This document shows, in pieces, positions 1 to 32,000 of a stretch of DNA of 32,000 nucleotides. The translations under genes and the position numbers were made by a program. The notes below the pieces were generated by a model. The model ran no database searches. It had not been told where the DNA came from and saw nothing but the letters and a program-made list of their open reading frames with translations. Source of the DNA: Candidatus Saccharimonadota bacterium. GTDB taxonomy: Bacteria; Patescibacteriota; Gracilibacteria; Absconditabacterales; Absconditicoccaceae. The stretch lies in the NCBI GenBank assembly GCA_030429145.1, contig JAUIDC010000001.1:1-32000 (forward strand), in the 5' to 3' direction. Position 1 is the stretch's first letter. Every line of letters begins with the position of its first letter.

Positions 1-656
1 ACTAGTGAAAATGCCATAGAGAAATTGGTCACATTGATGATATTTGCTATCCTCTCTTGCTGTTGTGCAAAGCCTCCTCTTGTTTGGATACTCTCCGCAT
101 TACGGATCACTCCCGTATAGTTGTCTACGATACCTCATAGTATCTCATACTCTTCATTGTTATCAAATGTCACATACATGGTCGCAGGCAGTGGATTCGC
201 AATACCGTACTTATCAAAGTTCTGGATGACTCCCGGAATTCTTTCCTGTAAAAGTGTCAATGCATCATCTTTCGAATAGTATTCAACCTCTAAGCCAGTC
301 TCCTCTAGCTCTGTTTTCAGTGACATTACCTTACCAAAGATCTCACTTTCTGTCATCTCGTTATCATTTTGTCCTGGCTCAACGATATAGAAGTAGAAAC
401 CAAGTCTCTGAGTAATATCGCCTGAGACCTGCTGAGTTACATAGGCGGTGGTCAAAAAGAGGTGAAGAAAGAACAGCAAGAACGCTATCACCGCACTGAT
501 ACCAAGAAACTGTAACCAGCTATGTCTCCATAGATAGTGTGTTGCTTTTGTCACAAGGTTTGGCTTGCGTGTTTTCTTATTGCTGAAACGAGTAAACTTC
601 ACTTGCTTACCAGCTTTCATCAATCCAAGATGTATCGAACGTAATGGGTTTTTCAT
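1..656 (-). CDS. ftsX: Cell-division ABC transporter permease FtsX (N-terminal part; 3' end runs off the window start)
   Basis: ORF 135..656 has a basic N-terminus, a TM helix (LQFLGISAVIAFLLFFLHLFL) and an FtsX-type extracytoplasmic domain (VEYYSKDDALTLLQERIPGV...YGIANPLPATMYVTF). Its apparent stop at 135-137 is TGA. The same frame stays open to position 1 (EYEIL-G-GIVDNYTGVIRNAESIQ...). Confidence 0.8.
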
Positions 657-663
657 CTATCTA

Positions 664-1275
664 CTATGCGTTTTTCTGAATAAACTTATCGAACAAATCG
701 ACTTTTTGGTCATAAAAACCAATCTCCTTATCAAATGTTTGTAACTTTTCATGGTTTTTCTGATAGTACTGGATCATGCGCTTTGCACGTCTATAATCAA
801 ACTCCAACAAATAAATTTCTATCAAATTATAAATTACCTCTGCATCCTTATTATTCAAACTCCATGCTTCTTCAAGGAACTGTACTCCTTTTTCTCTATT
901 ACCATACCAGTACTCACACAGCCCATAACAACGAAGAATCTCATGATTTTCGAACTTTGTGAGCTTGATAGCCTCCTGAAAGTACTTTTTTGCATCAAAG
1001 AAGTTATTTTTTTCCATCTCGAGGACTCCTTTTATATAGAGAGCCATCGGATCATCTTTTTTCTGCTGTAAGAGGAAATCTACCGGTTTCCCTGCTTTAT
1101 CGAGTTCTCCACGTCTATACTCGATATCTACCACTTGCATGAGTGCCTGTTCATTGCTAGGATTTTTCATCAGCTCATGGTTGATAAGCTTCAAAGCCTC
1201 ATCAAACTTTCCTTGTTTTTTCAGGTTTTCTACTTTTTCTATCACCATATCGGGGATATAGCTACTGTTACTCAT
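664..1275 (-). CDS. TPR-repeat protein (203 aa)
   Basis: Intact ORF ending in TAG. It has repeated 34-aa-like helical units (KFDEALKLINHELMKNPSNEQAL..., YFQEAIKL..., AEVIYNLIEIYLLEFDYRRAKRMIQYYQK). It ends 7 nt upstream of the ftsX start on the same strand. Confidence 0.7.
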   Translation of the reverse strand: MSNSSYIPDMVIEKVENLKKQGKFDEALKLINHELMKNPSNEQALMQVVDIEYRRGELDKAGKPVDFLLQQKKDDPMALYIKGVLEMEKNNFFDAKKYFQEAIKLTKFENHEILRCYGLCEYWYGNREKGVQFLEEAWSLNNKDAEVIYNLIEIYLLEFDYRRAKRMIQYYQKNHEKLQTFDKEIGFYDQKVDLFDKFIQKNA

Positions 1276-1431
1276 GCTTTTTTGTTTGTAAGGTAAATTG
1301 CTTTCGTATCTGCTATATTACCTCTTATAGTAATGACTCCCCCGCCAAAAGACAAATATTCCCCTCTTACGAGATGATATTCTCCTTTGCTTTTTCAAAA
1401 AAGTATGTGTGTAATGGTTATTTATCGTTTT

Positions 1432-1461
1432 AAAAAAGCCCGCCGTTTCCGGTGGGCTTTT
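1432..1461 (-). terminator. Rho-independent terminator downstream of rplA
   Basis: A 9-bp GC-rich stem (1437-1445 / 1450-1458, one G-U pair) with loop TTTC. On the minus strand it is followed by a T-run (plus-strand A-run 1432-1437). Confidence 0.7.
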
Positions 1462-1491
1462 CTTATATTAGAGATAGTACTATGAACGCTC

Positions 1492-29252: not shown

Positions 29253-30397
29253 TATGACGCTAATATTTCCTGTTTAATACTCTCTACTAAATTGTGTAGA
29301 TACCAGATGTTGTGAAGAGATAGTAGTGTCGAGGCAAGCATCTCGTTTTCTCTGACGAGATGATGAAGATATGCCTTGGTGTAATTACGTGAGGTGATAC
29401 AGTCACTTTCAGGATCAAGTGGTGAGTGATCGTTTTTATATTTTGCATTTGATAATTTTATATTACCTTGTTTGGTCATGGCTACGCCGTGACGAGCAAG
29501 CCTTGTGGGAAGTACACAGTCGAACATGTCGAAGCCATTGTCGATAGCATGACGGATCATCTCTTCGGTACCGACACCCATCAGGTAGTGAAGCTTATCT
29601 GCTGGGAGTTTTGGTCCCACAAATGAGACAACACGTGCAACATCTGCAGGAGACTCTCCAACGCTCACTCCTCCAACAGCGATACCGTCCTCGGCATACT
29701 GACTCAATACATCAATAGACTCTTGGCGAAAATCCTCATAGAGACCTCATTGTACAATCGGGAAGAGCACTCCTCTGGCCTCATCGTATTGTGGCATAAA
29801 ATGCTCGTATTGTCTTTTTGCCCAACGATGGGTGATTTGCATCTGCTGATAAAATTTCTTTTGGCTGATGCCTGGAGGCGAACATACATCAAGCATCATC
29901 ATAATATCAGAACCGAGGTTCCTTTGGATATCCACACATCCTTCTGGCGAAAAGAAGTGCTGAGAACCATCGTGGATACTACGAAATTTCACACCCTCTT
30001 CGGTGATCTTTGAAAGAGGTTTCTTGCGACCTCACTGACTTGTTCCCTCACGACTCTTCCCTCATGAACCGAGTGAAAATGCCTGGAAACCTCCTGAATC
30101 GGTCAAGATCAGCTGGTCCCGATTTTCAAATCTGTGTAGTCCTCCTGCCTCCTTGATCAGCTCATCTCCGGGACGAAGATATAAGTGAAATGTATTTGCT
30201 AAGATCAGGTTGATAGGCGGCAGCTTGCTGCCCATATAGTGAGGGTCACGAAGCATGTCGAGAACAATTCCCTTAACGGTAGCCTTGGTGCCCACTGGCA
30301 TAAATATAGGCGTGGTAAGTTTGACACCATTGAGCTCTATTTCACCGACTCTTGCATTTCATCTTGTTTTTAAGACGCGAAATGATAACTTGGACAT
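29252..30397 (-). CDS. tgt: Queuine tRNA-ribosyltransferase (381 aa)
   Basis: [43 protein letters not shown]..., [16 protein letters not shown] and GVSVGES...[34 protein letters not shown]. ORFs 30062.., 29747.. and 29252.. share one frame, joined by TGAs. Confidence 0.92.
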
Positions 30398-30457
30398 ATA
30401 ACAACAATAAAGTAAATCTGTGAACGATTATAGTTTTTTGGCATCTGTTTTCCATAC

Positions 30458-30901
30458 ATGCTTGAACAAATAAAAAAGTCCGTCGTAGCAAGATATAAGC
30501 GAGATGATACAAAAGGTATTTTTTTATCGACTTTTGACAAAAAAGGCGAACTTTTAAACTCTCAAGGTGTGCTACATACCGATAAAAAGCTCGGGGATGT
30601 CATAGAAAAACTCTATAAGTGATTTGCTGAGGATAATCTCAAAAAGATAGGATTGATCACTGTCGATATTGTGACTTCTCTTTTTGAGGAGACAAATATC
30701 AGTAAAATACCATCAACTTCGGTAAAACAATACGGATTTTACGTGATTGATGCGAACAACAAATCCGGCGTGATACTTCCCAATACTAAATGAATCGCTG
30801 ACGCGAAAAACGCACTCTTCGTGCTCAAACAAAAATATGGCATCAGCGGAAAGGTTAAAGTATTTCTTTTTACAACTGATAGAATTATTGTAACAACATA
30901 A
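30458..30901 (+). CDS. Hypothetical protein (147 aa), weakly AMMECR1-like
   Basis: MLEQIKKSVVARYKRDD...KGIFLSTFDKKGELL...ITVDIVTSLFEE...YGFYVIDANNKSGVILPNTK-G-IADAKNAL...KYGISGKVKVFLF. There are two in-frame TGAs. The layout resembles AMMECR1 but the LRGCIG motif is absent. Its TAA stop directly abuts the pilin D ATG. Confidence 0.4.
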
Positions 30902-31489
30902 ATGTATATAGGTAAAACTCTATGGAGGAAGCGCACATTTACACTGATTGAAATGCTTATTGTCATTGTGATAATAGGTGTTTTGGCAGCAGCGCTTGTT
31001 CCAAGGCTGAATTCAGTACAAGGAAGAGCAAGAGATACCAAAAGGAAAGCAGATCTCAGAAATATTGCTAATGGGTTGGAAATCTATCTATTGGACAATG
31101 GTACCTATCCTTCAGCCCAAAACACTCTTTGATCATGCTCCAACCCGCCAAATGGTTCAACATGCTATGTGTATAGCAACAATGCCTCTCTATGGATTTC
31201 TGGATTAAACACTATCCTTACGAGCATGCCTAAAGATCCTATAGAAAATGCTGCACAAAACAGCGTGTGAATATACGGCTCATGACCATGGGTAGACTGA
31301 TACTATATGTATGCGTATGGCAATGTTGCGAGGACAGCCGTGAACGGCAAAAATCATTTTGATCTCTACACACAGCTAGAAAATCGTAAAGACCCAGAGA
31401 GAAATGAACTACAACGTTATACATTTGGCTATACATATAATGCTCTCTATCCGACCTACTCACGACGAATGTATGCTATTAAACCATAA
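30902..31489 (+). CDS. Type IV pilin / GspG-like pseudopilin, paralogue D (195 aa)
   Basis: ...WRKRT-FTLIEMLIVIVIIGVLAAALVPRLNSVQGRARDTKRKADLRNIANGLEIYLLDNGTYP. Four in-frame TGAs (31130, 31268, 31280, 31295). LTSMPKDPIEN and LYTQLENRKDPERNE are present. TAA stop. Confidence 0.88.
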
Positions 31490-31501
31490 TCTATTATAAT
31501 A

Positions 31502-32000
31502 ATGCAAAAAAACATCGGATACAAAAAAACATTTACCCTCATCGAGATGCTCATTGTCATCGTCATTATTGGTATACTTGCAGCAGCACTTGTTCCAAGG
31601 CTAACAGCAGTGCAGGCAAGAGCGAGAGACAGCAAAAGGAAGGTTGATTTTAGAGCTATCTATAGTGCAAATGAGATCTACCTCATCGACAATGGTACCT
31701 ATGCACCAGTCAGTGGCTCATGTGCTATCAACACACTAGTATGATGTGTAGCACTCAGCTACAATAGTGCGCCATGGATCCCGACACTAACTGGATACCT
31801 AAACTCTATCCCTATTGACCCAGTCAATACCAATGGTGCACCTACCATCACAGGCAATTATTCATATATTTACTATAGAGTACTTGATACTCCTATCGAT
31901 ACCTACAGCCTTGTAACACAACTAGAAAATCAAAAAGACAATGACAGATGTGCGATACAGAACTATCAGTATACGGTCAGTTCTTGAGGAAGTACAGCCT
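31502..32000 (+). CDS. Type IV pilin / GspG-like pseudopilin, paralogue E (3' end off the window)
   Basis: MQKNIGYKKT-FTLIEMLIVIVIIGILAAALVPRLTAVQARARDSKRKVDFRAIYSANEIYLIDNGTY. TGA 31742-44 continues ...WIPTLTGYLNSIPIDPVNT...LVTQLENQKDNDRC..., still open at 32000. Confidence 0.85.

Follow-up and report, generated by a model that had tools for sequence, protein, structure and literature searches.

The codon UGA is read as glycine in Absconditabacteria and Gracilibacteria, a reassignment that defines translation table 25 (Campbell 2013 and Rinke 2013, as cited in PMC8629427 and PMC13695967), and with the program Codetta the codons CGA and CGG were in addition predicted to be tryptophan codons in Absconditabacteria (Shulgina & Eddy 2021, eLife 10:e71402, PMC8629427). 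A tool paper from 2026 places these lineages simply under 'table 25' (PMC13695967). The subject here is the genetic code of a window of 32,000 nucleotides, bases 1–32000 of contig JAUIDC010000001.1, which is the single contig (C1) of a patescibacterial genome (G000; 936,577 bp or 0.94 Mb, GC 0.40, completeness estimate 97.8%), and for which an earlier sequence-only reading had proposed table 25. From the comparisons below, the genome very probably belongs to the UGA-recoded Patescibacteria (the Absconditabacteria/Gracilibacteria group) and uses a code in which UGA is glycine and CGA and CGG are tryptophan; for the glycine part the confidence is at least as high. The proposal of table 25 stands for UGA but not as a full code, as CGA and CGG are read as tryptophan and not as arginine. 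The right code for the window is that of table 25 with CGA and CGG changed to tryptophan, and table 25 alone is wrong. Glycine UGA has been known since 2013 and tryptophan CGA and CGG were predicted in 2021, and no new biology is described here.

In PMC8629427 a glycine tRNA is recognized by G1-C72, C2-G71, G3-C70 and U73, and tryptophan-type tRNAs with the anticodons UCG and CCG by G73 and no A20, with support from A/G1-U72. In its source table the Absconditabacterales have no tRNA(ACG) but tRNAs with the anticodons GCG, UCG, CCG and CCA, and the codon usage per 10,000 is about 230–320 for AGA, about 18–37 for CGA and mostly below 7 for CGG; in the BD1-5 genomes listed there, either tRNA(UCG) is missing or CGA is an abundantly used arginine codon. 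All three reassignments of the Absconditabacteria code are present in the genome studied here, which shares the tRNA pattern (no ACG; GCG, UCG, CCG and CCA present; UCG and CCG with G73 and without A20) as well as the AGA-dominated arginine usage, with CGA at about 30 and CGG at about 8 per 10,000. Usage and tRNA set thus fit the Absconditabacterales pattern of that source table, with the difference that CGA and CGG already make up a third of the tryptophan codons and that the GC content of 0.40 is slightly above the 0.26–0.38 published for the reassigned clades. With table 25 the genome has in common UGA as glycine, a tRNA-Gly(UCA), the loss of release factor 2 (RF2) and UAA and UAG as the only stops, but table 25 keeps CGA and CGG as arginine, whereas here they behave as tryptophan. 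The code of Mycoplasma and Spiroplasma, table 4, is similar in the change of UGA from stop to sense, the loss of RF2 and the small genome, but its UGA is tryptophan; here it is glycine, and the UCA tRNA is of the glycine type.

The curated gene set of the window comprises 31 genes, of which 29 are complete. Translation with table 11 gives 38 short open reading frames (ORFs) of at least 100 amino acids with a non-overlapping coverage of 68%, and breaks 23 of the 31 genes. With TGA as sense there are 32 longer ORFs of at least 100 amino acids, covering 91% of the window without overlap. In Pfam searches the long ORFs were assigned to ordinary housekeeping families, namely L1, L11, NusG, DHFR, DnaG, MiaB, M16 peptidase, Na/Pi cotransporter, QueA, FtsE, TrmB and Tgt, and to a number of proteins resembling type IV pilins. 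The domain matches continue uninterrupted across the TGAs; the TGT domain, for example, spans 4 TGAs, from residue 15 to 379 of 381, and the QueA domain 8 TGAs, from residue 21 to 395 of 398. It had been claimed that the genes are interrupted by TGA but never by TAA or TAG and that they end with TAA or TAG, and both hold: 80 in-frame TGAs are spread over 23 genes, no TAA or TAG occurs in frame, and of the 29 complete genes 22 end with TAA and 7 with TAG. When these genes are read in the other two frames, TAA, TAG and TGA turn up in their hundreds, each more than 100 times, and the absence of TAA and TAG beside 80 TGAs is therefore not due to chance. The number of genes without TGA, 8, is not unusual compared with the about 5.7 expected from the glycine codon counts.

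For the genome as a whole, ORFs with TGA written as X were tallied in the manner of Codetta against the stop-to-stop ORFs of two standard-code references from the same phylum, G264 of the same class and G003 of another class. These were picked as genomes with no in-frame stop in Tgt or QueA; neither has a UCA tRNA, and G264 has RF2. Antisense "shadow" ORFs that matched shadow ORFs of the references inflated arginine at CGA, and overlapping ORFs with lower scores were removed, leaving 352 homology-supported ORFs with about 950 in-frame TGAs. Glycine is found opposite TGA in 504 of 896 aligned columns (56%), to be compared with 59–71% for the GGN codons, and in the columns where both references agree TGA is glycine in 142 of 161 (88%; GGN 88–91%). 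When the amino acids are ranked by log-likelihood, with substitution frequencies learned from the other codons, glycine is best for TGA and serine is next at -850, and all codons other than TGA, CGA and CGG are read as standard in the genome-wide tally. The 352 ORFs end with TAA (254) or TAG (98), and in the 193 cases that reach the C-terminus of the reference the median C-terminal extension is 0 residues. With C-termini level with those of the references, no gene needs TGA as a terminator.

A test that is free of any assumed code was made with 283 orthologue pairs (median identity 64%) between this genome and the first 400 kb of G190, a genome of the same genus. The partner of TGA in G190 is a GGN codon in 341 and TGA in 162 of 619 positions, and no other codon is found more than 8 times. 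Genome-wide, TGA makes up about 11% of all glycine codons. QueA carries in-frame TGAs, 1–18 each and mostly several, in the sampled genomes of the families f1, f88, f95 and f86, and in the phylum-wide sample of Tgt an in-frame TGA was found in G000 only.

The sequence-only reading had also named the places where its glycine UGA could be checked, and these came out in its favour: the residues at the UGA columns are glycine, and not tryptophan or protein ends, a UCA-anticodon tRNA with glycine identity elements is present, and prfB, the gene for RF2, is absent with prfA present. The genome has one class-I release-factor gene, which scores 441 bits with the prfA profile (cut-off 423, passed) and 255 bits with that for prfB (cut-off 370, failed). 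RF2 was not found at the profile cut-off in this single-contig, 97.8% complete genome, and as a positive control 112 of the 151 class members sampled gave an RF2 match above the cut-off. All sampled genomes of f1, f88, f95 and f86 give a single weak RF2 match with best E-values of about 1e-63 to 1e-86, which resembles the cross-hit of RF1 in G000 (2.1e-76), and most of the genomes that pass for RF2 do so at about 1e-115 or better. A match of RF2 grade is also missing in G204 (f94), G158 and G146 (f90) and G132 (f80), which may be other lineages with a recoded UGA or may have incomplete assemblies.

ARAGORN predicts 38 tRNA genes in the genome, including a tRNA(UCA) of 74 nt that is labelled 'SeC' due to its anticodon only. 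This tRNA has a 7-bp acceptor stem, a 4-nt variable loop and the full glycine identity set of G1-C72, C2-G71, G3-C70 and U73, the same as the tRNA-Gly(GCC) of the genome, and a tRNA with the UCA anticodon and 87–100% identity is present in 15 of 15 sampled family genomes. Its Rfam match is RF00005, the family of tRNAs in general, and no match to tRNA-Sec was reported. Selenocysteine recoding was rejected, as the long variable arm and extended acceptor stem of the tRNA-Sec architecture are not those of tRNA(UCA). One glycyl-tRNA synthetase (GlyRS), of the dimeric type, is encoded at C1:841032-842432 and one tryptophanyl-tRNA synthetase (TrpRS) at C1:760330-761289. With RF2 lost, nothing would terminate at UGA and RF1 would end the genes at UAA and UAG, and tRNA(UCA), with its glycine identity, presumably receives its amino acid from the single GlyRS and should then deliver glycine at UGA. 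The glycine tRNAs of the genome are UCC, GCC and UCA only; a tRNA-Gly(CCC) is missing, though both standard-code references have one.

In the cleaned tally the residues opposite CGA are W in 22%, F in 11%, Y and L in 9% each and R in 6%, and opposite CGG they are W in 18%, Y in 14% and R in 5%. For comparison, TGG faces W in 39%, F in 10%, Y in 8% and R in 3%, and CGT faces R in 60%. Maximum likelihood gives tryptophan for both CGA and CGG, a second reassignment, of the sense-to-sense kind, which the sequence-only reading did not include. In G190 the partner of CGA is TGG in 156 of 264 positions (59%), CGA in 53 and CGG in 31, and the partner of CGG is TGG in 34 of 60. No arginine codon is among the commonest partners listed for CGA, and the commonest partners of CGT, CGC, AGA and AGG are one another and codons for lysine, histidine and glutamine, with no CGA or CGG. 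The usage per 10,000 is 222 for AGA, 103 for CGT, 35 for CGC, 32 for AGG, 30 for CGA, 7.6 for CGG and 76 for TGG, and genome-wide CGA and CGG constitute about 33% of the tryptophan codons. The window genes contain 30 CGA and 14 CGG codons, and the clearest case among them is the CGG at the G-W-D tryptophan of Tgt.

No tRNA-Arg(ACG) is found in the genome, and the tRNAs GCG, UCG, CCG and CCA are present. Both tRNA(UCG), which is conserved in the family, and tRNA(CCG) have A1-U72, G73 and U20, and thus no A20; the tRNAs GCG, UCU and CCU have the arginine determinant A20. The CGN box would in this way be split, with CGU and CGC staying arginine by means of tRNA(GCG), and with tRNA(UCG) and tRNA(CCG) having lost the determinant A20 for arginyl-tRNA synthetase and carrying the tryptophan determinants G73 and A1-U72. 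Given these determinants both are presumably charged by the single TrpRS, and CGA and CGG should encode tryptophan. Pairwise tRNA identities pointed neither to a tryptophan nor to an arginine tRNA as the ancestor of the UCG and CCG tRNAs.

Were UGA tryptophan, as in table 4 of Mycoplasma, the same reading frames would be opened as with table 25. The four residues most often found across the 161 conserved TGA columns do not, however, include tryptophan, which lies 1572 log-likelihood units below glycine; tRNA(UCA) is of the glycine type and does not have G73 with A1-U72, and between the congeners TGA swaps with GGN, with TGG outside its nine commonest partners. This makes table 4 extremely improbable. 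Just as improbable is that UGA is still a stop, with the genes that it breaks up being pseudogenes, products of misassembly, genes for selenoproteins or cases of read-through; only the ORF pattern of table 11 speaks for this. The about 950 TGAs lie in 352 conserved genes that include such single-copy essentials as DnaG, neighbours of the RF1-era machinery, TrpRS and GlyRS, their positions are common to relatives or swapped with GGN there, no RF2 is present to read UGA, and for selenoproteins the UCA tRNA is an ordinary one. Plain table 25, with UGA as glycine, all else standard and CGA and CGG still arginine, is the label given to these lineages by current tools and databases (PMC13695967), and the about 6% of CGA columns that face arginine agree with it, as does a CGA in NrdR with arginine in both references. 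It is nevertheless very unlikely, as the residue profiles of CGA and CGG are tryptophan-like and the log-likelihood drops by 372 and 92 units respectively if they are read as arginine, the two codons swap with TGG and essentially never with CGT, CGC, AGA or AGG between congeners, the tRNAs that decode them carry G73 and A1-U72 but not A20, and a CGG in the window stands at an invariant tryptophan of Tgt. Furthermore, four of the five conserved-column sites where CGA appeared as arginine were artefacts from a false ORF in an rRNA gene, which was dropped.

Some observations weigh against a code with UGA as glycine and CGA and CGG as tryptophan. The fifth of these sites, the CGA in NrdR, is left as the sole conserved-column case of CGA as arginine after cleaning, although its partner in G190 is GCT (Ala); CGA columns are less often tryptophan than TGG columns (22% vs 39%) and slightly more often arginine (6% vs 3%); and several TGAs in the window are located at variable columns where the references carry K/R, V/I or E/K, so not every single site argues for glycine. 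What the sequences show are the residues facing the codons, the codon swaps between relatives and the presence or absence of tRNA and factor genes; the aminoacylation of the tRNAs, their decoding and the insertion of glycine and tryptophan are predicted. The low tryptophan fractions (18% for CGG) and an arginine fraction about twice the TGG background might mean that CGA, CGG or both are decoded ambiguously as tryptophan and arginine, or are in transition, and according to Shulgina & Eddy ambiguity is excluded by experiments only (PMC8629427). Yet the only tRNAs that pair with CGA and CGG by standard rules have tryptophan-type identity without A20, no interchange with arginine codons is seen between congeners, and new tryptophan codons would be expected where conservation is weaker, and this by itself accounts for the lower tryptophan fraction. 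Ambiguous decoding is thus quite unlikely. There may be a minor residual or ambiguous arginine reading of CGA, and it is unlikely that CGA, and perhaps CGG, is not yet a clean tryptophan codon with a minor arginine reading persisting, or that this family of 40% GC represents a separate or unusually advanced stage in the takeover of arginine codons by tryptophan.

With UGA as glycine and CGA and CGG as tryptophan, annotation by table 25 writes arginine at about one third of all tryptophan positions genome-wide, and 44 codons in the window are misread. The misread positions include catalytically placed invariant tryptophans, as in Tgt, and the translation error is passed on to protein databases, to family profiles and to predicted structures. 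The false ORF in the rRNA gene has 115 codons and shows 69–74% identity across phyla, and is a trap for homology-based inference of genetic codes.

The seven TGA codons named in the sequence-only reading were all recovered with the same coordinates, strand and peptide context, and each is located opposite glycine, or a GGN or TGA codon, in at least one comparison sequence (Table 1). The column of the TGA near the N-terminus of Tgt varies among 29 Patescibacteria (T 10, S 9, G 4). Judged by column conservation, the two TGAs at conserved glycines of QueA and the one at the invariant glycine of Tgt are stronger single sites than those picked before. The comparison sets were 79 QueA loci of named standard-code bacteria and 29 TGA-free homologues of Tgt from Patescibacteria. 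In the aromatic column of QueA that carries CGA, the five residues listed as commonest account for 78 of the 79 loci and do not include arginine.

Table 1. Recoded codons in the window and other features of contig C1, with the residues or codons found in the comparison sequences. The window is bases 1–32000 of C1.
Feature	Position	Strand	Observation
Whole window	1..32000	.	31 genes; 80 in-frame TGAs spread over 23; in-frame TAA/TAG 0
DnaG, KF-X-LGFAP, TGA	8273..8275	-	G in G264, N in G003
MiaB, NA-X-FSY, TGA	10576..10578	-	G in Bacteroides uniformis MiaB, PDB 7MJV
M16 peptidase, EREK-X-VVIQE, TGA	14317..14319	+	G in both standard-code references
M16 peptidase, CGG	14416..14418	+	W in one reference, R in the other
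Na/Pi cotransporter gene	15328..16971		
Na/Pi cotransporter, N-terminal GG, TGA	15361..15363	+	G in both standard-code homologues, G065 and G026
Pilin-like gene	17047..17688		N-terminal methylation motif
Pilin-like gene	17703..18254		N-terminal methylation motif
Accessory gene	18261..19598		445 residues
Accessory gene, LS-X-HSR motif, TGA	19266..19268	-	GGN, TGA, GGN in three family homologues
Pilin-like gene	23976..24569		N-terminal methylation motif
QueA, aromatic column, CGA	24782..24784	-	F 69, W 4, Y 3 of 79
QueA, IYP-X-F, near-invariant Gly, TGA	24791..24793	-	G in 76/79 standard-code bacteria
QueA, lineage-specific insertion	24830..24920		residues ~297-326; gap in 77-79 of 79 references
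QueA, IIAT-X-TT, invariant Gly, TGA	24977..24979	-	G in 79/79 standard-code bacteria
FtsE, PTGNLD-x, CGG	26480..26482	-	W in G003, S in G264
FtsE, first Gly of Walker A (LM-X-PSGTGKTT), TGA	26885..26887	-	G in both standard-code references
Tgt, VQ-X-G, invariant Gly, TGA	29747..29749	-	G in 29/29 TGA-free homologues and in Zymomonas mobilis TGT
Tgt, lineage-specific insertion	30023..30076		residues ~108-125; gap in 20/29 references
Tgt, G-W-D, invariant Trp, CGG	30119..30121	-	W in 28/29 homologues and in Z. mobilis TGT; tables 11 and 25 give Arg
Tgt near N-terminus, TR-X-NARVGE, TGA	30359..30361	-	G in Z. mobilis TGT
Pilin-like gene	30902..31489		N-terminal methylation motif
Pilin-like gene	31502..31999		N-terminal methylation motif
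tRNA(UCA)	C1:311442-311515		74 nt
False ORF in rRNA gene	C1:328134-328478		source of four of five 'CGA=Arg' sites at conserved columns
Second Na/Pi cotransporter paralogue	C1:597928-599478		28% identity, 9 TGAs
NrdR, CGA	C1:738864		Arg in both references, GCT (Ala) in G190
Class-I release-factor gene (prfA)	C1:929898-930965		

Tgt and QueA each have a lineage-specific insertion, and these insertions themselves hold TGA and CGG codons. The accessory gene had been labelled 'ParB-like', for which no support was obtained in Pfam, as the gene has no match even at E <= 1. Its product has the conserved motif L(A/S)-G-HSR-(F/Y)-EAF, and of the 30 family genomes sampled only 3 have the gene, with 5–15 TGAs in it. 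Few genomes of the phylum have the Na/Pi cotransporter: it was found in 2 of 100 sampled genomes besides this one, which has a second paralogue outside the window. The five pilin-like genes with N-terminal methylation motifs are all located within the 32 kb, and some of the pilin-like genes of the window are unusually rich in TGA, with for example 6 TGAs per 213 codons.

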